Shown here: piece after piece, positions 13,949 through 45,112 of the stretch | How positions within the stretch are numbered: the stretch's first letter is position 1 | How the letters are laid out: each line of letters starts with the position of its first letter | Origin: Ignavibacteriota bacterium | GTDB lineage: Bacteria; Bacteroidota; Ignavibacteria; UBA10030; CAVZMI01 | Direction of reading: 5' to 3' | NCBI GenBank assembly: GCA_963776275.1 | Contig: CAVZMI010000014.1 | Span: 1 to 64,000, forward strand | DNA length: 64,000 nucleotides | Program-made: the position numbers and the translations under genes | The notes under the pieces: generated by a model | What the model was told of the DNA's origin: nothing | Databases searched by the model: none | Seen by the model: the letters and a program-made list of their open reading frames with translations, nothing else

Positions 13949-15208
13949 TTACGGAGCGCCCACCGTAGCTCCCATGTTAACCCGATAGATGGTCCATTTC
14001 TGCGATTGGCTCGTGTTACCACGAACCATATAAAGGTAATTTCCCGAGCCCCAATTTAAGTGTCTGCAATAGGACGGAAGAATACCCCTATAGAAATAAT
14101 CGACTATCTTTGTATTGAGATCGAGAATCAGTATCGGATCCGCGGAAGCATCGGTTCCAATAAACATATTTCCTTTTGAAGAAAAGGCAATACCTCGTAT
14201 GCTGCGGGACGCTAAACCCCCTGTTGTGGTCCAGTCGACCACCAAATCCCTGGAGCCCAGGTTGCCGTTTGCATCAACCGAATGGCGCCAGATGGCTGTA
14301 GCAGGATTATTTGCAGCCGGGGCTGACGTTCTCACCACAAGATAGATGTATCCTTTGTACACACGCATAGCGAGGATCGTATCCTTTGCGTACACACCTG
14401 CGTATGTGATTGCCTTAACATCATAATTGGGCTGTTTGAGCACAAGCAGATCGGTCCGCGTGCCACCGGCGTAGAAATTTCCGCTGGAGTCGAAATCACA
14501 GAATCTAACCGTTTTCCCTGTGGGGAGTTTGACCCATGTCGCTATCGCTCCGGTTGCCAGATTCACCGTGTCGACATTCACATTGGTTCCCGTTATATAG
14601 AGTGCACCGTTGCGAATTCTTGCATCCGTCGGCGGAAATTTGGCCGGAGTTGGAAGAGTCGAATTAGTTTGATCTGTCGTAACTTTGTGAATATTTCTGG
14701 TCGTTGTTTCTATGACATACAGATTCTCTGCATCGTCAACGGCGACAGTATTCAATGGTACGTTGTTGTTAAAGTTGCCGTATTCATCTGTGACCGGATC
14801 GACTTTGTAGAGTTGGCTATATTTTACAACGGTAAGTGACTTGGGTGGAGCCACCATCACCGTACATGAATCACTCGCTAGATTGGGCCGGCGCACCGTG
14901 ACCGATGTCGTAGAGGTCGCGACAACTTCTGCAGTCACTGCGACAAGACTCTTTTTCGCATTATCAAAATAACTGAAATAAACGGCGTTGGTATCCGGCG
15001 GTGTAGAGAAGTTTGTACCCGTAACCGTAATTGTATTCACCCCGGGGGTCGCCTGGGACGGATCGACTTGTGTGATAGTCGGCGTTGGCGGTACTTCATA
15101 GGGTTGATCCCACGCGGGTTCCGCAACGTCGTATTTGCACCCTGACATGACCACCATCAATACCGCCATGAAGAGGAATACAATCGTTAAAAAGCTGCAG
15201 ACTTTCAT
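13949..15208 (-). CDS. IPT/TIG-domain + beta-propeller lipoprotein (module 1)
   Basis: Lipobox MSGC; IPT/TIG start PTITQVDPS...ITVTGTNF; NHL/SMP-30-like repeats (VAVDDAENLYV, DFDSSGNFY, IAFSSKGNMFI). Confidence 0.75.
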   Translation of the reverse strand: MKVCSFLTIVFLFMAVLMVVMSGCKYDVAEPAWDQPYEVPPTPTITQVDPSQATPGVNTITVTGTNFSTPPDTNAVYFSYFDNAKKSLVAVTAEVVATSTTSVTVRRPNLASDSCTVMVAPPKSLTVVKYSQLYKVDPVTDEYGNFNNNVPLNTVAVDDAENLYVIETTTRNIHKVTTDQTNSTLPTPAKFPPTDARIRNGALYITGTNVNVDTVNLATGAIATWVKLPTGKTVRFCDFDSSGNFYAGGTRTDLLVLKQPNYDVKAITYAGVYAKDTILAMRVYKGYIYLVVRTSAPAANNPATAIWRHSVDANGNLGSRDLVVDWTTTGGLASRSIRGIAFSSKGNMFIGTDASADPILILDLNTKIVDYFYRGILPSYCRHLNWGSGNYLYMVRGNTSQSQKWTIYRVNMGATVGAP

Positions 15209-15229
15209 AATCTCTCTCCTTCTTCAATA

Positions 15230-16285
15230 TTATAATGAAAACCGTGCGGTCAACCGCTGTACCTTGTCGAATACTCCAAAAGGCGTATAGGAGTAATCAA
15301 AGGCAAAACCGAATTTGGATAAACCAACCCCAAACGAAAAACCGTTCCCCAAATCGGTAGCCGACATGTATCCTCCGCGCAGCGAAAGCGCGTTCAATAA
15401 CCGGTATTCCAGTCCGACCTTGACTTGCTCCGGATGATCACGATAATGAGTTGCATCGATACTCATGTAAAGCGATTGATCCAGCGGAAGCTCCCCGATG
15501 AGATCCATCAGATTCATCGAGATACCAAGGTTGAACACCAATGGTGCCTGAAATCCTTCATCGACGTATTTCAATTCCTGTGAAAAATTCCGCACCGACA
15601 TCCCAAATACCAGACTCTTGATACCCGTCTTGAACTGCGTCCCAAAATCAAATATTAACGGCGTTAACTTATTCGACCTGGCCGTCTTACTGGTATCGGG
15701 AAAAGTATGTATAGCTCCCGAACTATCAATCTCCTGTCGCTGACCAATCACAGGTACTGAACTCTCCCCAAGGTCTTGCCGTACCCACCGTATCTGTCCG
15801 CCAATACTAAACTGATCCGTCAACTGCTTGGCATATCCGACACCCACAGCGATGGCGCTCAGTTTGAATATGCCGATATCCTCATACCCGAGATCACTCG
15901 CCTTGTTCACACGCGTACCGTAAAATTCTCCATAATCCACACTCTGGACACTGAATCCAATGACACCGTAATTACCGTTGGCTGGATTGATGGCCAGACT
16001 GAATGTGTAGTGCTTGATGTCAGCTATCCATTGGTTGCTGCTGGCCGTCATATCGAGAAAATTGGACATCTCGGCCATTCCTGCAGGATTGAAAAACAGC
16101 GCGCTTGAACCCATCCGAAGACTCGTCATCGCCTCTGCCATGGCAGATGCACGCGCGTCCGAGACTACACTCAAAAATTGAAGCCCCGTCTGGGCTAATT
16201 TCTGATTCTCCTGGGCATACCCGCTGCTCATCAACAGGCATCCCACGAGAAACACAACAATAAACTTACCTATCGTCTTTTTCAT
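15230..16285 (-). CDS. PorV/PorQ-family outer-membrane beta-barrel (module 1)
   Basis: Signal peptide, then the family N-terminal motif AQTGLQFLSV..DARASAMAEA..LFFNPAG; amphipathic strands, LSLRGGY, FDYSYTPFG. Confidence 0.8.
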   Translation of the reverse strand: MKKTIGKFIVVFLVGCLLMSSGYAQENQKLAQTGLQFLSVVSDARASAMAEAMTSLRMGSSALFFNPAGMAEMSNFLDMTASSNQWIADIKHYTFSLAINPANGNYGVIGFSVQSVDYGEFYGTRVNKASDLGYEDIGIFKLSAIAVGVGYAKQLTDQFSIGGQIRWVRQDLGESSVPVIGQRQEIDSSGAIHTFPDTSKTARSNKLTPLIFDFGTQFKTGIKSLVFGMSVRNFSQELKYVDEGFQAPLVFNLGISMNLMDLIGELPLDQSLYMSIDATHYRDHPEQVKVGLEYRLLNALSLRGGYMSATDLGNGFSFGVGLSKFGFAFDYSYTPFGVFDKVQRLTARFSL

Positions 16286-16296
16286 TGATTATCTCC

Positions 16297-19005
16297 TTAC
16301 CTGATGACGACAAACTTACGGAATACAGAGCCGACTCCGGGAGCTTCAACATAGAGAATGTAAATACCGCTGGCTATTATCTGTCCTGATGAGGTCATCG
16401 AATCCCAGAGCTCATCGCCCGTGCCATTGGTATGATTTTTCTCCCAGATCAGATCACCTCGTTCAGTGAAGATCTTCAGGTTGCACTGGCCCGGTAGCCC
16501 GAAGAAAGCTATCCGGTCGTATTGAGATTGATCGCCAAATTGGAACATACGGGCTCGGATATCGTAGGGGTTCGGTACGACGCGTACTAAATCCAACCAT
16601 GTGCCGCCAGAAACAGCAAATTTGGCAACATAACTATAACCATGAAAAGATACTGCGTCAGCACCGAAATATATAATATTTGAATCCCAATCTCCTTTCG
16701 ATTCTATCAATTTCCAGAGTCTGTGATCTGCATCTGGAGGTGGTCTTCTCATTTTAAGGGAATCAGTCAGCACACAAAGATAACGTGAACCGTTATAAGT
16801 TACAATATCATTACGAATGTAGATTTTTAATTCAGCCCATTCTTCTTTAGCTATATTCAACTTCCATATACTTGCATCAACATCTGGAGTTGTTTTGCCG
16901 CCCAGATTACCAAGTATGCAAACATAACTTGAACTGTCATATGATACTCCGTCATAACCAACATATCTAGAATGGGCATTCCATTCGCCTTTTGACGCCA
17001 TCAATTTCCAATGATCAGTATCAGCATCTGGAGTTTTTTTGCTGCCGGAAGTATCAAGTATGCAAACATAACTTGAACTGTTATAGGTCACAGAATTATA
17101 AGCAACATAACCAGAATCGGAAATCCAATTGCCTTTTGATACCAGCGGTTTCCAATGGCCGATGTCAAGGTTTGGAGACGTTTGTGAAACAGCCGGTCTC
17201 TGCAAATTGGCGGCAGCATCGGTTAATGTCCAGAACATACTGCTGTAAAGGGGAACACCGGGATGAACGTCGTTCTGTGTGCCGTCGTCCTTGGATTGAA
17301 TATAATAGTAGTAATCATAGCCTCGAATTGCAGTAACATCATCGAAGCCGTGGACAACATTAGATTGGTTACATTCAAAAATCTTCTCATATTCTGTTCT
17401 ATAATTAAGAACATTACCTCTCGACCTGTAAATCACATATCCGCCGAAGTGAGGAGCGGCATCAGCGTTGTCGGCCCATGAGAGTTGAATTCTATCTCCG
17501 CCGGATGCAACGGAAAAGGTTCGAGGAGGAGGCGGAGGCATCGGGATTTTATATCCGACCTTGTAATTCTGTACCGCACTGCGAAAAGTCTGCATGATAG
17601 AGTCTTTTCCCGTTTCACACCACCGACGCTTATAAAGATTATGGTCGGTTGTTGTGCTTCCGTCGGGCATGACAAGAGTCGGCGTTCCGGTTTTCTTAAA
17701 CCACTGAAGCCAGTTATGGCCGACCTCACGATTCTTTTCCATACTCATTCCGGCCACTCCTTCACCCGTGACGATGTGAATGCTATCACCGGGAGCCATC
17801 GTATAGGGACCACACGCGTAATGTGAATGGGGGCCACCAAAGGTATTTCTTATCGGGTCCTGAAAGTTGATCGGGTAATCTTCGCCGCAGATTTCATCAA
17901 GTTGTTTACCTGGAGCTGGATGGCCATCCTTTATTGCTATATTATAGCGGTCGTTCATGAAATTTTCGTCGTACTGACTTGCGACCGTACTGAAGATTGA
18001 AAGGTCCGAGCCGATGAAATTGTTTGTTCTAGGCTGCCATGGGTCATCCGACGGATCCGTTGCACTCTTGTCTGCATGAAGGATGACAACGCCTACGTAT
18101 TTAGCATTCGACATATACCCATCTTCCAGTTGATTTGGACAACCCCAATCTTCTGCATATGTGACCGCGCGTTCCTTGTTAGGGCCGTACCACTGATAGA
18201 GGGCTCTCATTTCAAAATCTGGTGCAGTCGGATCTGCGCCAATCGAATGAATGAGGTCACTGTTTCCCCAATTCGAGCTCCATGCTCCCCATCCCTGACC
18301 GTATCCAGGAACACTCACTCCGCAAAACGTACAGCGATCTACGAAATAGAACCAGACTGAATCCAATGTCTGTATCGGTTGTTGTACATCCCCCTCCGCA
18401 TCGTATATTCCTGTATTCTTAAAGACCCAGTCTTTAATATAGTAATTGTCGTGGTTCGATTGATCGAAACACATGGTCTTTTGTGTGACCGAGACTCCTA
18501 TGGAAGTGTTGAACTTCACCAGCATAATGCGATCAGATTCCAGATTTGGGTCCTGGACATCTAATTTGTCATAAATATTCAATTGAGAAGCAGGTTGATC
18601 ATCGACGAGCACGATAGGATGATAATTTTTTCCGAGCAGCTTATGTTCTAGCGGAAATACTTGAGTAGTCCAGTTAGATCCATCCCTCGGCCCCGCACCG
18701 ACGACCTTAACTGTTCTATGCTTACCATCTGCGGGATCATCGAAACTCCTGCAGCCAATCCAAAAGCCCTTGGATCTGTAAGTGGTTTGTTCGATGCTAT
18801 ATTGGGCCGGCCACGATTGGAAGTTTTTATTTTCTCCAAGTTCACTTTCATACATTACGCCGATTTCAGTGATGGGCGCCTGCAGCGGTGTCACGCGGAG
18901 CCATTTGAGTCGTTGAGCGTAAGAAGTATTGATACCGCACAAGACCCAAATACTCACGGTAATTACCAAATACCGGATTGATGATTTAATTATTTGTTTT
19001 TTCAT
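16297..19005 (-). CDS. Large secreted TBDR-partner protein: unknown N-terminal domain, Fn3-like domain, 4 CBM5/12-like repeats, variant T9SS/FlgD-Ig-like CTD (module 1)
   Basis: Signal peptide; PPPPP..SGGDRIQLSW...GYVIYRS (Fn3-like); repeats KGxW...Y...D.VxYxxSSYVC; C-terminal VVPNPY...KIFTERGDLI...WD...GQIIASGIYI...RKFVVIR. Confidence 0.7.
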   Translation of the reverse strand: MKKQIIKSSIRYLVITVSIWVLCGINTSYAQRLKWLRVTPLQAPITEIGVMYESELGENKNFQSWPAQYSIEQTTYRSKGFWIGCRSFDDPADGKHRTVKVVGAGPRDGSNWTTQVFPLEHKLLGKNYHPIVLVDDQPASQLNIYDKLDVQDPNLESDRIMLVKFNTSIGVSVTQKTMCFDQSNHDNYYIKDWVFKNTGIYDAEGDVQQPIQTLDSVWFYFVDRCTFCGVSVPGYGQGWGAWSSNWGNSDLIHSIGADPTAPDFEMRALYQWYGPNKERAVTYAEDWGCPNQLEDGYMSNAKYVGVVILHADKSATDPSDDPWQPRTNNFIGSDLSIFSTVASQYDENFMNDRYNIAIKDGHPAPGKQLDEICGEDYPINFQDPIRNTFGGPHSHYACGPYTMAPGDSIHIVTGEGVAGMSMEKNREVGHNWLQWFKKTGTPTLVMPDGSTTTDHNLYKRRWCETGKDSIMQTFRSAVQNYKVGYKIPMPPPPPRTFSVASGGDRIQLSWADNADAAPHFGGYVIYRSRGNVLNYRTEYEKIFECNQSNVVHGFDDVTAIRGYDYYYYIQSKDDGTQNDVHPGVPLYSSMFWTLTDAAANLQRPAVSQTSPNLDIGHWKPLVSKGNWISDSGYVAYNSVTYNSSSYVCILDTSGSKKTPDADTDHWKLMASKGEWNAHSRYVGYDGVSYDSSSYVCILGNLGGKTTPDVDASIWKLNIAKEEWAELKIYIRNDIVTYNGSRYLCVLTDSLKMRRPPPDADHRLWKLIESKGDWDSNIIYFGADAVSFHGYSYVAKFAVSGGTWLDLVRVVPNPYDIRARMFQFGDQSQYDRIAFFGLPGQCNLKIFTERGDLIWEKNHTNGTGDELWDSMTSSGQIIASGIYILYVEAPGVGSVFRKFVVIR

Positions 19006-19020: not shown

Positions 19021-22000
19021 TTATTCGTTGAAATCGAATGAAATTCGTATGCCGAAAAAGATTTTCCGTGGATCTAAGAACCAGAACAAGGACGTATTCG
19101 GCATATTGATATAGGCTTTGTCTTTATTAATTTGGTCGATCTCCGATTGAGATACCGGATCCCACACCTGTATAGTTTTTAGAGGATCCTGAGGATCAGT
19201 TTTATTAATGACACGCCAGTATCTTGCGGAGTGATTCTCTACAGTCACAGGTTTGCTGGGGTCATAAGTAGGTGTTTCAGGTTCATAAAAAACCGCTCGT
19301 AAATCATTTGGTGCCGGTTGTCCTTCGACTTGGCTCTGGAACACTTCGGGCTGCCATTCGACACCCGGTGTTCGATAATCACCTACTTTATCGCTTCCGG
19401 GAATATTATCATATGCACCGCTCTTTGGAAGATGGAGGGACATCATATAATTTGTAGTGTTAAAATCGTTGGGAAGATACAACCGGAGCGTATTCAACAC
19501 GTTGCTCATATCCACAAAGAGTTGCACTTTGAATTTTCCTATGGCTATTGCTTTGTCCACCCGCAGGTTTGTGTTGAAGTAATCCACACCTTGCACGTTG
19601 TATCCTGTGGAAGGAAGAAGTTTTGGATTCCAGGTAGTCCAAAATCCGGCCTGCCAATCTAAAATTATGTTCGCCCTGAATCCACCAAGTATCTTATGTC
19701 CAAATATTGAAGGTCCGAAATCTTCAGGTGTAAACAGACTCAGGTTAAGTCTGGCATAGGGTTGTGGAATCGGGCGATCCTGATACAGATTGACGGTGGC
19801 CTGATTCCACTGTTTTTGATCCGATGGGTTGTCATAAATGCGCGAACTGCCAAAATGCCCAGAAGTGTTTACTTGATAGGTATAGTTGGCGAAGCCGGAC
19901 CACCAGCGTCCCGATGTTTTACGAAGGGTCAGTTCAAATCCCCTGATATCTTCATAATTATTGGGAGTAGATTTTGTGTATTCAAAACCGGCAGCTGTGG
20001 AAGTATACCGGGTGAAATCTTGCTGGTCGGAGATATCGTTGTAAAAGGCAGCCACTTGCAGTAAATAATCCTCGAACAGGATGTGATCATACCCAAGTTC
20101 ATAGGAGATGGTTTTCGCCAGAGTGAGATTGGGATCTCCGAAGCTCGTCATCATGTGCTTGTCATCCCGCTCGAGTCTGAACAGACTCTCGTATTGAGGT
20201 ACTTGTCTGAAATGACCGTAGTTGAAGAATAACTTGGAATTCTCCGAGATTGGATGTGCAATGCCGAGTCTGGGACTTAATTGCCACTGAGGATCGAGCG
20301 ATCGTTTCGGGAACGTGTCGGCCTCGGGATTGTAGTTCGACGAGAAAAAATTCCCGTCGAATGATTTTAAATCATACCACTTGGTATTTGAATTGCAGTA
20401 GTCAACGCGCAATCCAAGGTTAACGGTAAATCCTTCGGCTTCTAGTTTATCCTGGAGATAGGCAGCACCCTGCACCGGGAAGACCTCCTGCTGAACATGG
20501 TAGGCATATTTTTTCCCCTGTGTCGCCATAAGGGTAACGCCATAATCGAAATTCAGATCGTTGTAAACAAATTCAACACCCGCCTTTACCAAATTCTGGA
20601 AATTTACCTGGCTGGTAAAATCAGCCTTCAGAGTTGACGATTGAACGACCGTGTTGTCACGTGCTTTACATATATGCATCACGTCGGCTGTAATCCCCAC
20701 GCTTTTAGAATAATTATCGGGCCAATAGCCGAATGGATTACTATCCTCAAAATAGCCGGGGATAACTTCATATTGCTGCGATGTGTCTCGCAAATCCGGA
20801 GGACGTGTATAATAATCACGCCGTAAGTTTTCCACCGATACCTCATAGAAAGTAGTGGGATTGATAACGCCGGTCAACTTTGCGGCGAGTGATCGCTGAC
20901 CTATATCAGATAGACTAAAGTTGAAATCGGAAAAAACATTCTTTAAATCGGAAACCTTTTCGACTGTACTCAATACATTCGCGACCTCATTTGGATAATG
21001 AGGATAGAAATAATTGCCGGCAGCGTTGGATGCATCCCAGTTGTGCCTGATTGTAAACTGTTTGCCCGAGAGTGCGGAAAGTTTCAATTTCAGTGAAGGG
21101 GAAATATCTGAAGTTACCTGAACTGTCCAATCGTAATCAGTGTAATCCGGTCTCGTAAGCGGGACGATCAGCAGATCACGAGTTCTTCGATATGAGGCGT
21201 AGAATCTCAGGTCGCCGAGTGACGAACCGATAACCGGTACCGGACCGCCGAAACCGGCGTCTATATCATAATCTGGCTGGTCGTTGATCTGTTTTTTGCG
21301 TGTCTCGTATTCGAAAATCCGCTGCGCCCCTGACGGCGTTATATCGTTGGTCGGATCGCTGTCTGAGCATAGTGAGTTCGAAACTTTGTTCCAACCATTG
21401 AAATCGGGATATTTTTTTCGTGTATATTGATCATATTGTGTTGGATCGATAGGGGCTTGTGTGCCAGTCCAGCACACATTAGGATCGAAGAAAGGGCGTA
21501 AGATATAAGAATATGGATCTTGAAGATCCTTTATACCGCCGCCTCTATAATATTTTGGCGCAGGGGGACTTATCCTTATCTGGAAACTTCCCGAATAATT
21601 TCTTTTGCCCCCTTCTCGAGTTACGACATTAACAACGCCCGATCGAACCTGACCGTATTCCGCATTGAATCCACCCCGCTCAACAGAAACTTCTTTTATG
21701 GCACTCAATGCTATTGCCGTTATCGGTTCGCTGTTTCTGGGATCACGCATCGTAATGCCGTCCATCATGAAAAGAATATTATCGCCTTCGCCGCCGCGGA
21801 TATTCAATCCTCCTCCAACACTCACTTTTCCACGCTTGTAACTATTCATAAAAGTCGGTTGGTAAGCATAGTTGGGATTGGAACCCCATCCTCCTCGGAC
21901 ACCAGCCTGCAACCCAACAGCACTCACTACGTTGTTGATTGGTAAGTTTGCAACTTCCTTGTCGGACATTGCAGCGACACTTGTGGCGACATCCGGCTTA

Positions 22001-22374
22001 ATTGATAATCTTTCGCCGAGAACGACCGACACGCTCAACTCAATCTCTTGCACTTCCAAAGAAAAATCGATGCGTGCAGTCTGATCAATGTACACCCGGA
22101 CATCATTCATAGTAATCTTTCGGTATCCGATGAAAGATACTTGAACATTGTAAGTCCCTGGCGGTACGTACAAAATGGTATAGTGACCATTGAGGTCTGT
22201 TGCCGCGCCTAATGATGTCCCAGCAACAACGATATTGGCTCCGGGTACAGGCTCACCGCTTGCCTTATTGATCACAGTGCCGGCGATTTTTCCTGTCGTT
22301 CCGGACCAAAGTGGTAACGCCGATACAACCACCAACAACAGAATCGGTATTATCACCCTTTTCAGTTGTTTCAT
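19021..22374 (-). CDS. TonB-dependent receptor, non-SusC type (module 1)
   Basis: Signal peptide; CarboxypepD_reg-like N-domain (TTGKIAGTV...PGTYNVQVSFIGY); plug motif VERGGFNAEYGQVRSGVVNVVT; LSPRLGIAHP; SYELG. Start set at ATG 22374 behind GGAGG rather than the track's 22536. Confidence 0.9.
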   Translation of the reverse strand: MKQLKRVIIPILLLVVVSALPLWSGTTGKIAGTVINKASGEPVPGANIVVAGTSLGAATDLNGHYTILYVPPGTYNVQVSFIGYRKITMNDVRVYIDQTARIDFSLEVQEIELSVSVVLGERLSIKPDVATSVAAMSDKEVANLPINNVVSAVGLQAGVRGGWGSNPNYAYQPTFMNSYKRGKVSVGGGLNIRGGEGDNILFMMDGITMRDPRNSEPITAIALSAIKEVSVERGGFNAEYGQVRSGVVNVVTREGGKRNYSGSFQIRISPPAPKYYRGGGIKDLQDPYSYILRPFFDPNVCWTGTQAPIDPTQYDQYTRKKYPDFNGWNKVSNSLCSDSDPTNDITPSGAQRIFEYETRKKQINDQPDYDIDAGFGGPVPVIGSSLGDLRFYASYRRTRDLLIVPLTRPDYTDYDWTVQVTSDISPSLKLKLSALSGKQFTIRHNWDASNAAGNYFYPHYPNEVANVLSTVEKVSDLKNVFSDFNFSLSDIGQRSLAAKLTGVINPTTFYEVSVENLRRDYYTRPPDLRDTSQQYEVIPGYFEDSNPFGYWPDNYSKSVGITADVMHICKARDNTVVQSSTLKADFTSQVNFQNLVKAGVEFVYNDLNFDYGVTLMATQGKKYAYHVQQEVFPVQGAAYLQDKLEAEGFTVNLGLRVDYCNSNTKWYDLKSFDGNFFSSNYNPEADTFPKRSLDPQWQLSPRLGIAHPISENSKLFFNYGHFRQVPQYESLFRLERDDKHMMTSFGDPNLTLAKTISYELGYDHILFEDYLLQVAAFYNDISDQQDFTRYTSTAAGFEYTKSTPNNYEDIRGFELTLRKTSGRWWSGFANYTYQVNTSGHFGSSRIYDNPSDQKQWNQATVNLYQDRPIPQPYARLNLSLFTPEDFGPSIFGHKILGGFRANIILDWQAGFWTTWNPKLLPSTGYNVQGVDYFNTNLRVDKAIAIGKFKVQLFVDMSNVLNTLRLYLPNDFNTTNYMMSLHLPKSGAYDNIPGSDKVGDYRTPGVEWQPEVFQSQVEGQPAPNDLRAVFYEPETPTYDPSKPVTVENHSARYWRVINKTDPQDPLKTIQVWDPVSQSEIDQINKDKAYINMPNTSLFWFLDPRKIFFGIRISFDFNE

Positions 22375-22675: not shown

Positions 22676-22993
22676 GTTTTTTTACCTCTATTATATATAA
22701 GTAGATAAGCATGAAGGAAGAAAAAACCTTAATATAAAGAGAGGATAATAATTAGGATTCCTCCCCAATCAGTGCTTCAAGTTTTCAATAACCTGATTAT
22801 TTTATTCGATTGCTCTTAGCGGAATCTCGTGAACGAAGCAGACGAACCTGAACTAGCGATCTCATCTATATATTGCACTACACCGCCAGGGAACGGACGG
22901 GTAGGTATAGAATCGAATAATAAAAAGGGTCGGTCCCCAAGCCACAGGGCCGACCCAAGATTCAAGTAAAAGCTTAATCTCCCAACCGCTATA

Positions 22994-24253: not shown

Positions 24254-24274
24254 AATCTCTCTCCTTCTTCAATA

Positions 24275-34500: not shown

Positions 34501-34523
34501 GAAGACGAAAAAACGGAGTAGAT

Positions 34524-36602: not shown

Positions 36603-39600
36603 ATGTCATCGGGTAAATACCGAATTCTTATTTTTTCTGCCCTATTATTTTCATTGATGGTAAGTGTTATTTTCGCGGGAACCACTGGAAAAATAGCAGG
36701 CAGAGTCGTGGATAAAGAGACTGGTGAACCGCTGATAGGTGTTAATGTCATTATTAAAGGAACAACCCTTGGCACGACCACGAATATAGATGGTTATTAT
36801 GCCATTCTGTATGTACCGCCGGGTGTGCAAACTGTCGTAGCAAGCATGGTTGGGTATTCTGCCGTGACTGTTACAAGAGTGCGTGTTCTTATAGATCAAA
36901 CAGCACCTGTTAATATTGAGATGACGCCACAGGCAATTGAAACAGGAGCCGTTATCATCGTCGCAGAACGAAGCCTCGTAAAAAAGGATGTATCCACAAG
37001 TATCGTTTCAGTTCAGTCGGATGAAATTGAAAGTCTTCCTGTCTCCTCGGTTGGTGATATGATGGGCTTTCAGGCGGGAGTTGATAAAAATTTTGTAGTG
37101 AGGGGTGGCAGTGCGGATCAGTTACTCTTTCAAATCGATGGTGCTACTTTACGTGATCCAAGAAATAACAAACCTATCACAATGGTTGCCCTGAGTTCAA
37201 TCCAGGAAGTTTCCGTAGAACGTGGAGGCTTTAACGCCGAGTACGGACAGGTACGCTCAGGAATAGTCAATATCATTGAAAAGGAAGGGGATATCGCCTC
37301 TTATTCCGGGTCGATAACGGTGAAATACAGCCCTGCACAGCAGAAAAATTTTGGTATTTCTGTGTACGATCCTAATTCCTGTTGGAACCGTCCGTATTTA
37401 GATCCTGATGTCTGCTGGGTGGGAACAAAAAACGGGACATGGAATGAATATACCCAGAGACAGTATCCTAAATTTGACGGCTGGAATTCTATTTCTGAGG
37501 GATTGATGGCAGACAGTGATCCTACCAACGATCTTACACCTGCCGGAGCTCAGCGTTACTGGGAATGGACACATAGAAGAAGGCCTGCGAAGGAGCCCGA
37601 TTATTATATTGACGGAAGCTTCGGCGGTCCAGTGCCGTTTTTAAGCGAAAAACTGGGTAATCTACGATTCTTTACCAGTTTTGTGATGAACAGAGAAATG
37701 CTTCTTATACCTCTCAGCCGCGATGATTATAAAGAATATAACTGGTCATTTAAGCTGAATTCTGATGTAAGAAAGAATATGAAACTGCAGTTAAGTGCCA
37801 CTATGGGTAAAACCTTTACGGTCCCCATCAACTCGGACGATAGACAATTTTGGAATCCTACATTCGGCATCACCGGCGTTCAATTTTGGAATCCCACAGA
37901 CTATATGCGCACACCCCTTGAGATCGCTGAGGTCACGAACGAGGCGAGACCCTCAAGGATTTTCTGTGATTCCTGGTATGGTAAAGCCGAAATCAGTCAC
38001 ATCACCTTTGCTGCGAAACTCACTTCGTTCGTGACTGCGTCGACCGTATATGAGATAAGCATAGAGAATGTTAATCGTAATTACCTTGTCGGCCCCATCC
38101 AGAATCGGGATACAACAAGGCGTTACGAAGTAGTCCCGGGTTATTTTGTCGATGAGGCTCCAAACGGGTATAATCCTTTGCCGAACGCTGATCTTTCAGG
38201 GATGTTCTTCGGCGGTCACAGTGCTACGGCACGTGATTCCAGCAAATTGAAATCATTCACACTAAAGGCAGATTTAACAAGCCAATTGACCAGCGTCCAC
38301 CTGATCAAGACAGGAATTGAATTCTCATATTACGACCTTGATTTGGATTATGGTTGGGTGAAGGTATTTTTCAATGATGTAAATTATGTGAAAGAAAACT
38401 GGAAGCCGTACCGTCTCTCCTTGTACGCTCAGGATAAGATAGAAGCATTAGGATTTATCGCCAATTTAGGCTTAAGAATGGATCTCAGCAATCCAAATAC
38501 TGAATGGGCGGATGTTAATCCTTTCGATAAATTATATTTCTCCAGTTCGTATAATTCGAGTGCCGATTATCTAAAAACAAAAGCAAAAGTCGACGTTGCC
38601 CTCAGCCCTCGTTTGGGCATATCGCACCCGATTACAGAGAATTCAAAATTGTACTTTAATTACGGGCACTTCAAACAAATGCCTGCATATGAGGAGATAT
38701 TCAGAGTGGGTCGCAGTGCGACAGGGGGTATGTCCAATTATGGCAATCCAAATTTAATTCAGGCAAAGACAGTCTCATATGAATTAGGTTATGATCACGC
38801 GTTGTTTGAGTCGTTCCTGCTGCAACTTTCCGCATTTTATCATGACATCACCGATCAACAGGCTTATACCGCTTATTTAAGCGATCAAAAAGGTATTGGT
38901 TACTACGCGGCGAATAACAACAGCTATGCGGATATCCGTGGATTTGAATTAACGTTCAGAAAATCTTCCGGCGACTGGATCCGTGGTTTTGCCAACTTCA
39001 CCTATCAGGTGGTAACCCAGGGTGCTTTTGGGAAACCAACGATCGATGAGGACCCGAGCAAGCAGAAAATTATAGACCAGAATACAGCCCTGCTGTACCA
39101 GCAAAAACCGGTTCCGCAGCCTCGTGCCAATGCAAGTATAACATTCTTGACGCCGAAGGATTTTGGGCCGCAGTTCGCTGCAATCCGTCCTCTTGGTGAC
39201 TGGACTCTGAACTTAATAGCAGAATGGAGAGCCGGTGGATATATTACATATCAACAGAGAGTCATCCCCGAAGAGATCAACAATGTTCAGTTATCGGACT
39301 ACTATAATATAGATCTTCGCCTCAACAAGACTTTCGATTTCAAGATGTTCTCGCTTATGTTCTTTATGGAAGTTCGGAATCTGTTGAATTCACAGTTCCT
39401 GTCGGGCAAGAGTTTTTACGATAGCTACGACTTCCAGTACTACATGGAATCGCTCCACTTACCCGAGAATCGTGCATATGACAATATACCGGGAACAGAT
39501 CGTGCAGGCTCCGTCCGGAAAGAAGGCGTAGAGTTCCAGCCGGTTGAACAAAGCGGAAACGTGAACGGTATGAATACAGCCAATATCAAGACAGGGGTCA

Positions 39601-39812
39601 TTTATTACGACAAACCGACAAAAGAATATATGGTGTATCTCGACAGCAAATGGGAAAAAATGAAGGACAACCCTGATCACCCTGAGTTAGGCAATCGTCT
39701 ACAGCAGGTTTTAGATGATAAAGCGTACATTGATATGCCGAATAATACATCATTCAGCTTCCTGAATCCAAGACAAATTTTTTATGGTATCAATTTATCA
39801 TTTAAATTTTAA
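36603..39812 (+). CDS. TonB-dependent receptor, non-SusC type (module 3)
   Basis: Homologous to modules 1 and 2 (TTGKIAGRV, VERGGFNAEYGQVRSGIVNII, LSPRLGISHP); ends in LSFKF. Confidence 0.92.
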   Translation: MSSGKYRILIFSALLFSLMVSVIFAGTTGKIAGRVVDKETGEPLIGVNVIIKGTTLGTTTNIDGYYAILYVPPGVQTVVASMVGYSAVTVTRVRVLIDQTAPVNIEMTPQAIETGAVIIVAERSLVKKDVSTSIVSVQSDEIESLPVSSVGDMMGFQAGVDKNFVVRGGSADQLLFQIDGATLRDPRNNKPITMVALSSIQEVSVERGGFNAEYGQVRSGIVNIIEKEGDIASYSGSITVKYSPAQQKNFGISVYDPNSCWNRPYLDPDVCWVGTKNGTWNEYTQRQYPKFDGWNSISEGLMADSDPTNDLTPAGAQRYWEWTHRRRPAKEPDYYIDGSFGGPVPFLSEKLGNLRFFTSFVMNREMLLIPLSRDDYKEYNWSFKLNSDVRKNMKLQLSATMGKTFTVPINSDDRQFWNPTFGITGVQFWNPTDYMRTPLEIAEVTNEARPSRIFCDSWYGKAEISHITFAAKLTSFVTASTVYEISIENVNRNYLVGPIQNRDTTRRYEVVPGYFVDEAPNGYNPLPNADLSGMFFGGHSATARDSSKLKSFTLKADLTSQLTSVHLIKTGIEFSYYDLDLDYGWVKVFFNDVNYVKENWKPYRLSLYAQDKIEALGFIANLGLRMDLSNPNTEWADVNPFDKLYFSSSYNSSADYLKTKAKVDVALSPRLGISHPITENSKLYFNYGHFKQMPAYEEIFRVGRSATGGMSNYGNPNLIQAKTVSYELGYDHALFESFLLQLSAFYHDITDQQAYTAYLSDQKGIGYYAANNNSYADIRGFELTFRKSSGDWIRGFANFTYQVVTQGAFGKPTIDEDPSKQKIIDQNTALLYQQKPVPQPRANASITFLTPKDFGPQFAAIRPLGDWTLNLIAEWRAGGYITYQQRVIPEEINNVQLSDYYNIDLRLNKTFDFKMFSLMFFMEVRNLLNSQFLSGKSFYDSYDFQYYMESLHLPENRAYDNIPGTDRAGSVRKEGVEFQPVEQSGNVNGMNTANIKTGVIYYDKPTKEYMVYLDSKWEKMKDNPDHPELGNRLQQVLDDKAYIDMPNNTSFSFLNPRQIFYGINLSFKF

Positions 39813-39820
39813 TTCTGAAA

Positions 39821-42017
39821 ATGAAGGGTAGTATTCACATGATTAAAAAATATCTATTGAAAGTGATAATTGGTTTTTCGCTTTGCAGTGCATTCGGTAT
39901 TAATACAATATATGCTCAGGTTACAGGCCCTCAGGAGATCAAGTGGGTATGGGTAAGCCAGCTTCGAAACTGGTTTTCGAACGGCGGTGCTGAGATCGAA
40001 TACGGTAGACGTTCCAGGGCATTCACTACGACGGACCAGCTGGATGGATTAAAATGGCCGGCAGAAAACATCAATCAGGATGTCCTTGTCGGCCAGTCGG
40101 TCTGGATCGGAACGACGAATTTCGTCGATCCGGTTGACGGACGAACATATCCGCATAAGGTAGCCTGTTCGGGCCGTCTATTCACGTATATCGGCTCGGA
40201 GATATTTCCCGAATCATTCTCGCTGGTGGGTAAATTTAATCATCCGTCAGTCCTGGTTGATGGAATGCACGCATCTGATCTTGATCCCAACGATGTATTA
40301 GATGATGTCCAAGACACTTTGAAAGCGGACCGTATGATCTATAATAAGATCCATACCTCCATCGGTGTATCAATGACCAGAAAAGTGCTCGCATTCACAC
40401 AACAGTACAATGATAATTACTACATCTATGAATATGTCTTTAAAAATAACGGCATCATCGACGGCAGTGGTCAGAGGAAATTAAATAAAACACTTACCGG
40501 TGTGATATTCCACTTTCAGTTCCGTTTAGGATTTGCAGGTGAATCGTACCATCAGGGTTGGGCCCCGACAGGTGCCTCATGGGGATTGAATACTATTAAT
40601 GATGGATTCGGTCAGGATGCAGCTCATCCATGTCCATTCCCCGATGCATTCGCTGCTCAATGGGAATACTACGGCCCGGTTTCGGCATCTCCGGGAGTGT
40701 TGGTGGATATCGGACTTCCTCATTATACCGGTCAGGAAATCATGCCCGGATCAGTAATGGCTGGGACGAAGTTCGCAGGCGTTGCGGTTCTTTATGCCGA
40801 CAAATCGCCTCAGGAACATATCAATGATCCGGCACAACCTTTTGATACACAATATATGGGCTCGGATCAGGACGGTCAGGGTGTTAATCAGTATGATATG
40901 GCTTTGATGGACAGTAAGTATAAGTTCATGTCAAAAGGACATCCGGCCCAGACTCATGCTGAATATGTTGGAAAAGATGCAAATGGCTGGCCAGCACGTT
41001 TCCCCACAACGGTAGGATTGGGAGATCCGGGGGGGTATGCAAGTGCCCAGGGATACGGTCCGTATACACTGAACCCTGACGATAGTATTCGGATTGTCAT
41101 CGCAGAAGGAATCAACAGTATAAACCGACGCCTGAACAGAGAAATTATCAGGAATTACATCGCCAATACCCCTCCGTTCATACTGCCAAACGGATCCACG
41201 ACGACCGATAGAAATACTTATAAAAATACTTGGGTATTTTCCGGGAAAGATTCCTTATTCCAGACTTTTCGGAGAGCGAGAGACAACTATCAGAGCGGAT
41301 ATGCAATACCCGCCCCTCCACAGCCGCCAAAGACATTCCAGGTGACATCCGGTGGCAATAAGATTACTCTTATATGGGAACCCCCCGAGAAAATAGAGTC
41401 GAACTTCGACGGATACAGACTCTACAGGGCAGAAGGCAGAGCGGATACGACATACGATATGATCTTTGAGTGCAATAAAAATAATCTGGCGAATAGTTAC
41501 GAAGACAGGAATGCGCGACGAGGATTTAATTATTTTTATTATATACAGTCGAAAGATGACGGTACGACGAATCCCGGATCGGCCGCTCTGAATATCCCGG
41601 CCGGTGAACCTCTTGTCAGTAGTAAATTTTATACGATGACGAACCATGAGGCATTTTTAACACGTCCTTCCGAGAAGCAACTCTCAGAAATACGAGTGGT
41701 TCCTAATCCTTATAATATTAGAGCAAAGTGACCTCCAATTTGGGAAGGATACGCCTGACAGACTCGCCTTTTTGGGTCTGCCTGCGTATTGTGTGATAAA
41801 AATTTATACCGAAACCGGGGATTTGATACAGACAATAAATCATATCAGCGGAAGCGGCGATGAAATTTGGAATTCGGCGACTTCTTCCGAACAGATCGTG
41901 GTCAGTGGATTATATATTGCGTATTTCGAGGTTACACAAGACATCTATTCGGATTCAGGGGAATTGATCTTTAGGAAGGGCGACAATACCTTCCGGAAAT
42001 TTATAATCATCAGATGA
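39821..42017 (+). CDS. Large secreted TBDR-partner protein (module 3), no CBM-like repeats; 1-nt insertion at ~41726 splits off the CTD
   Basis: Homologous to 16297-19005. Removing one A in GCAAAGT joins VVPNPYNIRA to SDLQFGKDTPDRLAFLGLPAYCVIKIYTETGDLI...FRKFIIIR (track ORF 41772-42017). Confidence 0.75.
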
Positions 42018-42039
42018 CTTTAATCATTTGGAGAACGAA

Positions 42040-42729
42040 ATGTACCGACAATGTCAGAAAAAATATGCTTCTTTTTTAAAACTATTTCTGGTAGGAATTG
42101 TGGTAATGATCGGTATCGGGTGCGACAGCATCCTACCGGAAAAATTTAAAAATAAGGAATATACTATTGCGGATATCGATAGTAGGGCCTGTATAATTCT
42201 TTCCGATACGACAGGAAAGTCAATTCAGACAATGACTCTACAAGGTTTTGTGGACACTGCAACGTGGCGAAAATTTACACAGGATAGCCTGACCGAAAAT
42301 CAAGTTTTATATCCGAAATTCAGCGTGCTGGTCGATAGTCTGCCGCAACTTGTCCGGGACTCATTGATGGTGGTAGGATATCCTAAAGGCGAGAACACCA
42401 CGTACTCGGTATTAAGAGTATTACCCGGAGAATCGAAAGATATTTACATTTATACAAGCTTGTTCTATAACGCGGATAATGTCAACGAGTACATTTCGGT
42501 CCGGCTGATGAAAAGCGATACGATCGAAGTAAATTATTCGAATGATATGCTCGGCGAAACCGTCTCCGGCAGTACTCAGACGATCCTGGTGCAGTCTCAG
42601 GAACGTATTGTACCAACCATAAGATCGCGCAACAAGATTCATGTCGAAGAGGGTGTCTATCTCGTACGATTTGGGATGAGCAATCCCGTGACAATCAACA
42701 AATTTAAAATTCTAATTTTATCACTCTAA
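42040..42729 (+). CDS. Hypothetical lipoprotein specific to module 3
   Basis: Basic N-terminus, hydrophobic stretch, lipobox IGIGC; lies in-operon between the partner and the PorV-like gene. Confidence 0.7.
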   Translation: MYRQCQKKYASFLKLFLVGIVVMIGIGCDSILPEKFKNKEYTIADIDSRACIILSDTTGKSIQTMTLQGFVDTATWRKFTQDSLTENQVLYPKFSVLVDSLPQLVRDSLMVVGYPKGENTTYSVLRVLPGESKDIYIYTSLFYNADNVNEYISVRLMKSDTIEVNYSNDMLGETVSGSTQTILVQSQERIVPTIRSRNKIHVEEGVYLVRFGMSNPVTINKFKILILSL

Positions 42730-42834
42730 TACAATTTAGTATAATGTCTTTGAGGTACTGTACCTCTTTATTTGTATAATTAATTAGTTGTGGGGGCGTC
42801 AGTAAGTGTGCAATTCCAAAAGGAGAATAAAAAA

Positions 42835-43854
42835 GTGAATCGGTTTATAATCACGTGCTTAACTGCAATTGTCATAATCGGGATGCTTTCATCTCTATCC
42901 TATTGTCAGGTAAAATGGGCACAAACGGGATTCAATTTTCTCAGTGTATCGTCTGATGCGAAGGCAGGTGCTATGGGCGATGCTGTAAACTCCCTTGTCG
43001 GCTATTCAGGCGCGTTGTACCATAATCCGGCAACCATGGCTGAAATGCCCTCTCTGCTCAACGCCAACTTCAGCATTAATTCCTGGATTGCCGATATTAA
43101 GTATCTCACTTTCAGCATGATTGTCTCACCGGCTTCCGGAAATTATGGTGTAGTTGGCATCAGTGTGCAATCGGTCGATTATGGCGATGTGCAGGGAACG
43201 ATGGTATGGAACAACAGTAAAGGTTATATCGATACCGAAGTGATGAAACCTTCAGCATTAGCCGTCGGTGTCGGTTATGCCATTATGCTTTCGAATCAAT
43301 TTGGTGTGGGCGGTCAAATCCGATTTGCATATCAATCACTGGGCAAGAGTGTTGTTCCGGTTACCGGCACCAATTCGTACACGACGAAACAAAATGTTGC
43401 CAACACGGTAGCGTATGATTTCGGGACTATCTATAAAACTGGTATAAAGAGTCTGGCTTTTGGTATGTCTATAAGGAATTTTTCTAAAGATGTAACCTAT
43501 GAACAAGAAGCGTTTCAAATCCCGTTGCTCTTTACATTGGGTATTTCGGCAGACCTTTTCGATTTCATAGGATCAGCCGGACCAAATCACTCGCTCATGC
43601 TCTTTTTGGACAGCACGCATCCACGGTCCCATCCGGAGCAAATTAAAATCGGGGCCGAATATCAATTTCATAAATTGATATCATTACGAGCAGGGTACAT
43701 CAGCAGCGACAGTGAGGATGGCGTTACGTATGGATTTGGCGTTTCTTCTTCCGGCCTTGGTGTTTCTCCCGTTAATTTTGATGTCGATTACTCCTACACG
43801 CCGTTCGGTGTGTTTAATAACGTTCATAGAATATCAGTAAGTCTTACAATGTAA
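42835..43854 (+). CDS. PorV/PorQ-family outer-membrane beta-barrel (module 3)
   Basis: AQTGFNFLSVSSDAKAGAMGDA..LYHNPA; shared YKTGIKSLAFGMS, HPEQIKIG, DYSYTPFGVF. GTG start at 42835 behind AGGAG. Confidence 0.8.
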   Translation: MNRFIITCLTAIVIIGMLSSLSYCQVKWAQTGFNFLSVSSDAKAGAMGDAVNSLVGYSGALYHNPATMAEMPSLLNANFSINSWIADIKYLTFSMIVSPASGNYGVVGISVQSVDYGDVQGTMVWNNSKGYIDTEVMKPSALAVGVGYAIMLSNQFGVGGQIRFAYQSLGKSVVPVTGTNSYTTKQNVANTVAYDFGTIYKTGIKSLAFGMSIRNFSKDVTYEQEAFQIPLLFTLGISADLFDFIGSAGPNHSLMLFLDSTHPRSHPEQIKIGAEYQFHKLISLRAGYISSDSEDGVTYGFGVSSSGLGVSPVNFDVDYSYTPFGVFNNVHRISVSLTM

Positions 43855-43873
43855 AATGATAGAGTGGACTACT

Positions 43874-45112
43874 ATGAAAAATAAAAAATCTGTTTATCAT
43901 CTTCTTACAGCAACTGTTATTATACTCTTCTCGATCAGTGCATGCAATGAGTATAATGAACCGGGGATCATTTATACCCCCGATGTATCATCGTACCCGG
44001 TAAATCCGATTATCACCAGTATCTCACCTTCTGATTCTATGATTGCCGGGATCAGGGAGTTTACGATTGCCGGACAGAATTTCACCACGAATACCGATTC
44101 ACTTCATGTATTCTTTGGTTCGCAGCAGGCGATGATAAAAACTGCTACACCTACGAGCTTAGTCGTCTATCGGCCGCCAAATTCCGGAAATCTTGTGGTC
44201 AAGGTCGAAATCCCCGCGGCCCTCGGAATACCGAAGGTACCTTACAAAGTCGAAGTTCCGATTGTGAAATTTGGCGACTTCAAACTCTTTGCACGTGCTT
44301 TTTATGCCATGGAAATAGATAAAAACGAATACCTATGGATAGGAAGCGCTAGATATCTCTATAAAGTAACACCGGATGGGCTCTACACAACCACATTTAT
44401 GAAAAACGACAAATCTGCCTTTAACGAACCAACAGACTTACGGTTCGGCCCCTCGGGATTACTATATATTGCTTTGAAAAATCAAAAAATTATCTATTCT
44501 ATTAACCCGGAAGACTCTACACAGGCACCTGTCGCCTATGCGACGTTTCCAAATAATGCGGAAAAGATGGATTTTGACGAAAATGGGAACCTATTTGCAG
44601 GGAAAGCCAACGGACTCTATAGGGTGGATCACGTGACGAAGGCTGTTACCGCCACGGGTCATTACATAAATAATTTTACAATAGTTGACATTCATATATT
44701 TAATCATTATGTTTACGTGGCAAGTGGTTCACGCATTTCGAAAACGATTATTAATACCGATGGTTCGTTGGGAAGTACCGATGAACTTGTTGTTGATATT
44801 CTTAGTAATCCCGCTGTTAGTCAGTGTACAATAAGCTCGTTTAGTATTGCTGTAGATGGTACGGTTTGTACGGTTTATTTATGTCTGAAAAACCATCCGC
44901 AATATTCAATTTTTGTTCTTGAGAACGACGGTTCAGTAACTCCATTCTATGTTGAAGACATATTACCTCAGAGAGTCGACCAGATGTTCTGGGGGAATGG
45001 AAGATATTTATTCCTCAATAAAGGTATGGGTCAGGCGAATGATTTACTCCGCGGCGTGTATAAAATGGGATTAGATAAGAATGGTGCGCCATATCTTGGA
45101 AGAACTCTTTAA
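43874..45112 (+). CDS. IPT/TIG-domain + beta-propeller lipoprotein (module 3)
   Basis: Lipobox ISAC; PIITSISP...TIAGQNF; DFDENGNLF; WGNGRYLF; distant homolog of 13949-15208. Confidence 0.72.
   Translation: MKNKKSVYHLLTATVIILFSISACNEYNEPGIIYTPDVSSYPVNPIITSISPSDSMIAGIREFTIAGQNFTTNTDSLHVFFGSQQAMIKTATPTSLVVYRPPNSGNLVVKVEIPAALGIPKVPYKVEVPIVKFGDFKLFARAFYAMEIDKNEYLWIGSARYLYKVTPDGLYTTTFMKNDKSAFNEPTDLRFGPSGLLYIALKNQKIIYSINPEDSTQAPVAYATFPNNAEKMDFDENGNLFAGKANGLYRVDHVTKAVTATGHYINNFTIVDIHIFNHYVYVASGSRISKTIINTDGSLGSTDELVVDILSNPAVSQCTISSFSIAVDGTVCTVYLCLKNHPQYSIFVLENDGSVTPFYVEDILPQRVDQMFWGNGRYLFLNKGMGQANDLLRGVYKMGLDKNGAPYLGRTL

Follow-up and report, generated by a model that had tools for sequence, protein, structure and literature searches.

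A recurrent TonB-dependent receptor module with a PorZ-like-tailed partner and its own PorV/PorQ-family barrel: a candidate glycan uptake unit in an Ignavibacteriota bacterium

Gene content of the three modules

We analyzed a 64-kb stretch of DNA (positions 1 to 64,000 of contig CAVZMI010000014.1, assembly GCA_963776275.1), referred to below as the window, from an Ignavibacteriota bacterium whose 3.70-Mb genome is assembled in 38 contigs and is 96.4% complete. One gene order occurs three times in the window: a TonB-dependent receptor (TBDR), a large partner protein, a barrel of the PorV/PorQ family, and a lipoprotein that combines an IPT domain with a beta-propeller. An earlier note, made from the sequence alone, had read this threefold order, and its placement of all three copies, here named M1, M2, and M3, is borne out by the open reading frames (ORFs) and by family profiles.

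M1 and M2 lie on the reverse strand. The M1 receptor (19021 to 22374), which counts 1,117 amino acids (aa) from an ATG at 22374, has a CarboxypepD_reg N-terminal domain (PF13620, 70.7 bits), a Plug domain (PF07715, 32.7 bits), and, presumably, a large barrel. It is followed by the 902-aa partner (16297 to 19005), in which a Sec signal without a lipobox precedes a supersandwich head, an FN3 domain, CBM5/12-type repeats, and a PorZ-like tail; by the 351-aa barrel (15230 to 16285; NF033709, 161.4 bits; PorQ and PorV models, 71.7 and 61.9 bits, both below their cutoffs); and by the 419-aa lipoprotein (13949 to 15208), with a lipobox at Cys24 and an IPT and six-bladed-propeller-type architecture assigned from its translation and its 99.8% identity to the modeled M2 copy. 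In M2, Pfam and NCBIfam profiles identify a 1,096-aa receptor (27791 to 31081, with the ATG at 31075), and the partner (809 aa; 25342 to 27771), barrel (351 aa; 24275 to 25330; NF033709, 161.0 bits), and lipoprotein (419 aa; 22994 to 24253) follow in the same order. An AlphaFold (AF2) model divides the M2 partner into a head (residues ~31 to 540), an FN3 domain (~498 to 600), two CBM5/12-like repeats, and a tail (709 to 809).

M3 lies on the forward strand and begins with a 1,069-aa receptor (36603 to 39812), again identified by Pfam and NCBIfam profiles. Its partner is in two pieces: a 636-aa ORF with the head and the FN3 domain, which meets a stop shortly past the start of the tail (39821 to 41731), and the tail itself in another frame (41733 to 42017; match at 5.0e-25, 46% identity to the M1 tail). 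An additional small lipoprotein (233 aa; 42028 to 42729), with no Pfam or NCBIfam match, stands between the partner and the barrel (354 aa; 42790 to 43854; NF033709, 184.7 bits), and the IPT/propeller lipoprotein (418 aa; 43856 to 45112) matches the TIG family PF01833 at 43.4 bits (cutoff, 20.9; E value, 3.5e-11). Two Neomarinimicrobiota loci have a small lipoprotein of the M3 type in the same position (L070, 9548 to 10276; L071, 6246 to 6962; 27% identity).

The gap between the receptor and partner genes is 8 to 19 bases in all three modules. M1 and M2 are 67% identical in the receptor and 54% in the partner, and M3 shares 42 to 43% and 38%, respectively, with the two. The remnant of a fourth receptor that the note had placed at 10722 to 10945 is recovered by blastx as a C-terminal fragment of the same family on the reverse strand (10727 to 10948), where 69 aa match residues 1027 to 1095 of the second receptor (TBDR2) at 51% identity (E value, 2e-21), accompanied by a 15-aa piece.

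All three receptors combine CarboxypepD_reg with Plug (PF07715, 32.7 to 35.3 bits; cutoff, 23.9); the 22-strand barrel family PF00593 has no match in them at an E value of ≤0.01, and other receptor models match the barrel only in part. The SusC model TIGR04056 gives 83.3, 72.4, and 93.7 bits for the M1, M2, and M3 receptors against a cutoff of 368.25, matching the N-terminal part only (profile positions 2 to 227 in M1), and the SusC signature TIGR04057 has no match in the three at an E value of ≤0.01. The true SusC of locus L080, our positive control, reaches 806.2 bits with TIGR04056 and 58.8 bits with TIGR04057. The M2 receptor matches no SusC-type chain by sequence among solved structures at an E value of ≤0.001. 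Because TIGR04056 falls so far below its cutoff and covers only the N terminus, and because TIGR04057 does not match, the module receptors are, as judged by their sequences, TBDRs but not SusC. Genome-wide, the best TIGR04056 score is 93.6 bits, with no SusC above the cutoff; the SusD families PF07980 and PF14322 have no match in the whole genome, and SusD families are absent from the Pfam matches of the partners and lipoproteins. The remark in the earlier note that neither a SusC signature nor a SusD is visible thus holds for the window and for the 96.4%-complete genome.

The partner has a signal peptide and no lipobox, in agreement with the non-lipoprotein of ~700 to 900 aa that had been described. 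The M1 partner matches CBM_5_12 at 37.1 bits (cutoff, 26.2); the M2 and M3 partners have no match in Pfam or NCBIfam, and the ESM Atlas clusters nearest to the partner have no Pfam family in common. The 120 best of 480 relatives are unnamed or called "hypothetical protein," and the family comprises 478 representative clusters at an E value of ≤0.001, 183 of them at ≤1e-30. By these searches, the partner belongs to an uncharacterized protein family. In the M2 model (predicted local distance difference test [pLDDT] score, 78.2), which we compared with known structures by VIA-align, the head is a galactose-mutarotase-like supersandwich whose best match is the N-domain of a bacterial glucoamylase of glycoside hydrolase (GH) family 15 (1lf6_A; Z, 18.6; root mean square deviation [rmsd], 2.9; 235 residues aligned). 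It also resembles GH94, GH116, and GH65 chains at Z values of 16 to 18 and aldose epimerases at 12 to 13; Foldseek on the whole model gave only low-TM, domain-level matches. Beyond the head, the model has the FN3 domain and two small repeats, then the tail. The head is highly conserved: across ~570 residues, many Asp, Trp, Tyr, Arg, and Gln positions are invariant, and identity between phyla is 50 to 60%.

The family also has longer members. In 14 long relatives that we scanned (1,091 to 1,604 aa), the type-A tail model PF18962 matches 12, and FlgD_ig the other 2. Among long relatives such as P0201, P0204, and P0215, the head is preceded by BNR/Sortilin-Vps10-type propeller repeats in some and followed by beta-helix, DUF1565, or PMP repeats in others, and each has a type-A tail. 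The genome itself has a fourth head of the partner family (C26, 19849 to 26581; L078), joined across a frame change to a 1,792-aa FG-GAP/FN3/TIG protein that ends in a canonical type-A tail; neither a receptor nor a barrel is nearby.

Each of the three IPT/propeller lipoproteins has a Cys lipobox. The AF2 model of the M2 copy (pLDDT, 92.3) consists of an IPT domain and a beta-propeller (2p4o_A; Z, 26.6; rmsd, 2.7; 259 residues aligned). Its whole-length matches include the Bacteroides thetaiotaomicron structures 3hrp_A and 3tc9_B (BT_3476, titled "auxiliary nutrient binding protein"), with 340 to 344 residues aligned at ~12% identity and an rmsd of 8.8 to 12.4. The module protein shares with these Bacteroides lipoproteins, which come from polysaccharide utilization loci (PULs), the IPT plus NHL-type propeller architecture over the whole length and the lipoprotein signal; since the whole-length rmsd is high, the arrangement of the domains differs, and the function of the two is that given by their entry titles. 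The assignment of an IPT/propeller lipoprotein in the earlier note is upheld by the TIG match in M3, the modeled propeller, and this BT_3476-like architecture.

The layout invites comparison with the SusC/SusD gene pairs (RagA/RagB) by which PULs are recognized, as stated in the sections available of PMC13543919. Both systems have a CarboxypepD_reg-type TBDR of ~1,000 to 1,100 aa with the gene of a large surface partner directly after it, further surface lipoproteins, and surroundings rich in carbohydrate-active enzymes (CAZymes). They differ in that the module receptor fails the SusC models (72 to 94 bits, versus the cutoff of 368 and the 806 bits of the L080 SusC) and in that its partner is no lipoprotein, belongs to no SusD family, has a beta supersandwich head and a type IX secretion system (T9SS)-type tail, and is accompanied by a dedicated barrel gene.

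The partner tail and its co-encoded barrel

The earlier note had proposed that a T9SS-tailed partner is held at the surface by its own PorV-type barrel. The type-A tail model PF18962 matches none of the three partners, yet it matches 5 other proteins of the window; with TIGR04183, the other type-A tail model, no partner is above the cutoff. The partner tail (residues 709 to 809 of the M2 model) matches the tail of PorZ (5m11_A) with a Z value of 13.0, an rmsd of 2.5, 85 residues aligned, and 32% identity, and tail-only local matches to the PorZ model NF052228 are found at 2.2e-05 (M1 partner) and 1.7e-07. On the whole partner this equivalog model gives 23.1 bits versus a cutoff of 260, so the partner is not PorZ. 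Judged from the modeled structure, the tail belongs to a PorZ-type class that type-A models miss; the idea of a T9SS tail stands in this form, and that of a canonical type-A tail does not.

All three module barrels pass the PorV/PorQ family model NF033709 (cutoff, 90 bits) and fail both of its equivalogs, with 61 to 80 bits for PorV (NF033710; cutoff, 250) and 72 to 75 bits for PorQ (NF033711; cutoff, 220). The genome carries a canonical PorV elsewhere (NF033710, 255.7 bits) as well as SprA, and it has 11 matches above the NF033709 cutoff in all. Because a separate canonical PorV is present and the equivalogs failed, the module barrels are extra PorV/PorQ paralogues, and the co-encoded PorV-family barrel of the earlier note is confirmed in that sense.

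To evaluate binding between the two, barrel residues 25 to 350 (alignment of 44 rows) and the 105 residues of the tail (alignment of 30 rows) were folded together. The complex score was 0.89, the median of three runs, versus 0.00 for the best of three controls; among reference cases, 116 of 157 solved complexes attain that mark, as do 2 of 215 mismatched pairs. At least 96% of the contacts agreed among the runs, and the pLDDT of the partner was at least 79. Invariant residues fall inside the predicted interface in 19 of 24 cases for the tail (Fisher P value, 1e-4) and in 14 of 58 for the barrel (P value, 0.05). With good confidence, although on the strength of a model, we predict that the partner tail binds the co-encoded barrel, where it would be retained. 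The proposal that the partner is held by its own barrel gains from this prediction, and the nearest precedent is the pair PorQ-PorZ rather than the shuttle PorV that had been suggested.

A search with the tail profile against all ORFs of the genome returned, as its top six proteins (E value, ≤6e-8), the six that adjoin a PorV-family barrel; later matches (E value, ≥1.5e-5) cover only the second half of the tail. Half of the six are the partners; the other half are unrelated large proteins (1,142, 1,300, and 1,073 aa) that have no Pfam family. The latter three lie in loci of the same design, in which a CarboxypepD_reg-type receptor, the large tailed protein, and a PorV-family barrel follow each other (L075, C14, 108135 to 115811; L076, C28, 82158 to 89983, with a LacI-type regulator upstream; L077, C23, 397187 to 404405, with an NHL-repeat protein downstream). 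Their large proteins were considered as carriers of partner-family heads, and this was ruled out: since profile comparison by hhalign aligned only the tail, in one case plus an FN3-like stretch, their heads are unrelated to that of the partner. Conversely, two partner-family loci that have neither receptor nor barrel (L034 and L045) carry canonical type-A tails, as does the partner-family protein on C26. A profile search for a barrel in the barrel-less loci found none. Going by these sequence comparisons, the tail class and the PorV-family barrel go together. Elsewhere in the genome (C34, 3335 to 6820), a 545-aa ORF that matches the tail profile weakly (E value, 0.065) is followed by two tandem PorV-family barrel genes; this may be another cargo-barrel unit.

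The closest precedents are found within the T9SS itself. According to the parts available of PMC10947112 and PMC10202324, the tail of PorZ is retained and binds PorQ, and in the latter source cognate PorV-like barrels are hypothesized to shield such tails from cleavage, as PorP/SprF-like barrels would for type-B cargo. The module resembles the PorQ-PorZ attachment complex of the Porphyromonas gingivalis T9SS in its tail (Z, 13.0; 32% identity). It differs in its whole-length scores (23 bits versus 260 for PorZ; 72 to 75 versus 220 for PorQ), in its head, in being encoded jointly with a receptor, in occurring in several copies per genome, and in its nutrient uptake context. With type-B cargo such as SprB, whose gene stands beside that of its own small anchoring outer-membrane barrel SprF in the same available parts (PMC10202324, PMC10947112), it shares the arrangement but not the families: the module barrel scores 29 to 30 bits with the PorP/SprF model TIGR03519 (cutoff, 90.55), and the tail scores 18 bits with CHU_C (cutoff, 27).

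Conservation, relation to SusC/SusD, and glycan context

In a scan of one genome per species, 164 stretches encode a relative of the partner, and the best 80 yielded 74 loci with 81 partner genes. Neighbors were labeled from stop-to-stop ORFs by BLAST against the window proteins, and cases with enough flanking sequence were counted as evaluable. By their records, the loci belong to Ignavibacteriota, Melioribacteraceae (the cultured Rosettibacter primus among them), KSB1/Zhuqueibacter, Calditrichia, Neomarinimicrobiota, and unclassified bacteria. A TBDR lies directly upstream of the partner in 74 of 77 evaluable cases (exceptions, L034, L045, and L054), a PorV-family barrel lies directly downstream in 48 of 52 (exceptions, L030, L034, L045, and L062), and an IPT lipoprotein follows within 3.5 kb of the partner in 45 of 48; in some loci it stands upstream of the receptor instead. 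The gene-order survey suggested in the note has thus found the order conserved in 74 loci of other genomes, often among CAZymes.

We then compared the distribution of the partner family (E value, ≤1e-20) with that of SusD (E value, ≤1e-10) in a sample of 201 genomes from the window's phylum, in the definition of the tool used. The partner family is found in 52 of them and SusD in 101. In the window's own class, 24 of 48 genomes have the partner, 6 of 48 have SusD, and 3 have both; in other classes, the partner occurs in 27 of 152 genomes, and 25 of these 27 also have SusD. Six loci taken from SusD-bearing genomes all have the receptor, partner, and barrel, with the lipoprotein in three, and in L080 (4804 to 17551), from another class, a true SusC/SusD pair directly adjoins a receptor-partner-barrel module to form a mixed locus. 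On these three grounds we rejected a role of the module as a SusD replacement peculiar to lineages without SusD; because it coexists with true SusC/SusD, the module is not confined to such lineages and is a system of its own. The suggestion in the earlier note that the partner is a SusD analogue is opposed, as a strict substitution, by the coexistence in other classes and in L080.

Two observations may connect the receptor with the head of the partner. M1 and M2 share, by blastn, a 2,707-bp cassette (13872 to 16578 and 22917 to 25623) at 99.4% identity, with 15 mismatches and no gaps. In it lie the lipoprotein and barrel genes together with the final 94 codons of the partner gene, and its boundary is exactly the start of the tail; read from the sequence, receptor and head have diverged together while tail, barrel, and lipoprotein have been homogenized. 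In the closest genome, that of Bacteroidota bacterium isolate SPRUCE 29, whose best partner relative is 92% identical, both contigs concerned (L001 and L002) stop no more than ~85 bases past the partner gene, which would fit a repeat that breaks short-read assembly. The second observation comes from pairwise distances among 32 complete modules (M1, M2, and 30 from the loci; M3 was left out, as was any module whose ORFs were split, short, or noncontiguous). The TBDR and the partner head correlate best of all pairs (Spearman coefficient, 0.83), and their partial rank correlations are 0.72 to 0.82 after removal of barrel, lipoprotein, or tail; the value for tail versus barrel is 0.58.

The genes around the modules point to glycans. 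M1 is followed on the same strand by a split GH31, a GH95, a split GH2, and a GH12 protein that has a type-A tail. Such a set suits xyloglucan, and because these four families follow on the same strand, xyloglucan is the most likely substrate of M1. After M3 come a CBM9 protein, a sodium:solute symporter, GH94, a GDSL esterase, GH3, GH8, GH115, and GH30. In a scan that covered 76 of 92 flanking ORFs in 16 of 20 chosen loci (L020, L029, and L033 being among those left out), a glycoside hydrolase family was found in the flanks of 10 of the 16. GH31 and GH2 stand directly after the lipoprotein in L008, L024, L037, and L042, and GH31 is also found in L019, L060, and L065. A role of the module in glycan uptake is highly probable.

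Three probable regulators lie between M2 and M3 on the forward strand (31871 to 35994): a solute-binding protein, a histidine kinase, and a sigma-54-dependent response regulator whose gene a frameshift splits; the same trio is found upstream of the module in R. primus (L037). The sigma-54 promoter consensus has one match in the window, at 4133 and away from the modules (2.84 expected by chance), and a looser pattern has 11 (8.08 expected), none of them upstream of a receptor gene. The sequence TGGCAT...TTGTT at 36094 to 36112, upstream of the M3 receptor, loosely resembles a -24/-12 promoter and fails the consensus patterns searched.

The proposed uptake unit and its alternatives

We lean toward a reading in which the module is a four-part outer-membrane unit for glycan capture and import, with a partner that is delivered by the T9SS and held on its own PorQ-like barrel. 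The families, the folds, the conserved gene order, and the association of tail class with barrel are established, and the reading builds on them. The partner would be exported by the T9SS, for which the genome has SprA and a canonical PorV; its PorZ-like C-terminal domain would stay uncleaved, bound to the co-encoded PorV/PorQ-family barrel, and the barrel would anchor the partner at the surface by analogy with PorQ and PorZ. The head, a supersandwich joined by FN3 and in some copies by CBM5/12 repeats, would bind poly- or oligosaccharide beside the receptor and feed the receptor encoded upstream, with which the partner would be physically associated. The IPT/propeller lipoprotein may act as an accessory surface glycan-binding subunit.

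Several results weigh against this reading. The M3 partner is interrupted near 41728 to 41733, its tail going on in another frame up to 42017, and no barrel adjoins the partner gene in 4 of 52 evaluable cases; two of these loci, L030 and L062, keep the special tail with no barrel in the available sequence. The complex score of barrel and tail may partly reflect likeness, because PorV complexes have already been solved; the barrel profile matches the PorV of 6h3i and 8gl6-type entries at 8e-09. The locus counts describe a family rather than independent events, because all loci were found via the partner and many are kin, and the covariation of TBDR and head counts for little, because linkage and shared descent alone can yield it. 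Long proteins in which the head is joined to beta-helix or BNR-type domains also exist, for which reason the head may be catalytic or work on its own. Finally, 6 of the 16 scanned loci have no glycoside hydrolase in their flanks, and in L082 and L083, which belong to one genome, the scanned flanks hold mostly FG-GAP/UnbV_ASPIC and TPR proteins, no glycoside hydrolase family, and no IPT lipoprotein detectable by BLAST.

The manner in which the head would serve the receptor could be more specific: anchored by the barrel, it might sit over the receptor opening and open and close like the pedal-bin lid formed by SusD. We consider this possible and doubtful. The short gap of 8 to 19 bases behind the receptor gene in three modules and the upstream TBDR in 74 of 77 cases would suit a lid, as would a head of ~500 residues, about the size of SusD, next to a receptor of SusC-like length and N-terminal domain. 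The same can be said of the covariation, which is strongest between receptor and head, of their joint divergence in M1 and M2 against the homogenized remainder, and of the window's own class, where SusD is found in 6 of 48 sampled genomes versus 24 of 48 for the partner family. These points amount to adjacency, covariation, and a cassette boundary. On the other side, the head is a beta supersandwich, unlike SusD with its tetratricopeptide repeat fold. A lid is also harder to reconcile with the coexistence of the module and SusC/SusD in 25 of 27 genomes of other classes and side by side in L080, with heads that occur without a receptor in long secreted proteins, and with the unrelated heads used by three other module types in this genome. 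The partner could alternatively be a surface-anchored enzyme, of a new family that cleaves or modifies glycans, which would make oligosaccharides for the receptor in the role of a PUL surface endo-enzyme. The strong conservation of the head, with invariant residues over ~570 residues, would be expected of an enzyme; the supersandwich fold is catalytic in aldose 1-epimerases, which are among the matches at Z values of 12 to 13, and the long relatives are fused to beta-helix/pectinesterase-like and BNR-type domains typical of CAZymes. We nevertheless judge it unlikely: no match to a catalytic family was found in Pfam, NCBIfam, or ESM Atlas clusters, the region matched by the head in the best GH15, GH94, GH65, and GH116 chains is their N-terminal part, which is their noncatalytic domain, and separate secreted enzymes with canonical tails are already present in the same loci.

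The remaining alternatives deny either the machine or its substrate. The genes might be co-regulated without forming one unit, the partner and barrel being a self-contained adhesin or glycan binder and the receptor acting alone. This would account for support that is limited to the contact of barrel and tail, for the 4 of 52 partner genes without a barrel, and for heads without a receptor; it is rather improbable given that the adjacency of receptor and partner is nearly strict over several phyla (74 of 77) and that the TBDR-X-barrel design recurs with an unrelated X in this genome. It is most improbable that the module imports something other than glycans, or that its receptor serves export, as has been described for the TonB-dependent transporter Oar. 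Oar is required for the secretion of a protease, according to the available portion of PMC6434023, and some loci lack CAZymes; against these alternatives stand a T9SS-type tail in a genome with SprA and PorV, the CBM5/12 repeats, the CAZyme context, and the sugar-type regulators.

Returning to the four-part capture-and-import unit, a T9SS-tailed glycan partner on its own small barrel beside a TonB importer seems to be an undescribed arrangement. The full-text literature searched, mostly without subscription papers, yielded no account of a T9SS-tailed partner that goes with a receptor and a PorV-family barrel of its own, so the check for prior work proposed in the earlier note turned up none. 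The accessible sections of a T9SS review (PMC11205867) do not describe such a unit, and those of a 2026 review on glycoside transporters (PMC13543919) contain neither PorV nor T9SS nor "type IX." A possible lead is the xylan locus of Rhodothermus marinus, in which a TBDR is followed by three hypothetical proteins, two with a Por sorting domain, together with SusC/SusD (PMC6987092, Table 1, as far as available). L082 and L083 were considered as this locus and set aside, since their gene content differs.

Taken further, and quite tentatively, the modules might represent a second, SusD-independent TonB glycan importer across the Fibrobacteres-Chlorobi-Bacteroidetes group, in which a T9SS cargo serving as lid or loading subunit is locked on a PorQ-like barrel and the heads, of at least three unrelated kinds in this genome, are interchangeable. 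If so, the T9SS would be an assembly system for nutrient uptake machines, the tail class would serve as a sorting code by which the barrel is chosen, and the rule of "special tail, own barrel" would widen from PorQ-PorZ and SprF-SprB to nutrient uptake. Apart from this, the analysis names a tail class unseen by type-A models and a sizeable uncharacterized family. Because only 6 of 48 genomes sampled from the window's class have SusD and 24 of 48 have the partner family, the module could be used as a marker of glycan uptake loci in such genomes; relatives are found in records of the Ignavibacteria type, KSB1, Calditrichia, and Neomarinimicrobiota. A cultured carrier, R. primus strain 4148-Me (L037), makes the model testable.

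The break in the M3 partner is either a frameshift or a sequencing error. Other genes of the window are split as well: GH2 at 7444/7474 (gene, 5699 to 8151), GH31 at 12936/13006 (10996 to 13839), and the response regulator at 35224 to 35495 (34497 to 35994). Together with the M3 partner, these would be either assembly indel errors or recent pseudogenes. Among sequencing runs, no RNA run is listed and one DNA data set matches, a peat metagenome in the form of contigs, whose contig spans only 36603 to 41419. At the edge of the CAZyme island, the window also encodes a protein (198 to 2021) that combines lamin-tail, Fn3-associated/CHB_HEX_C, and CotH kinase domains.

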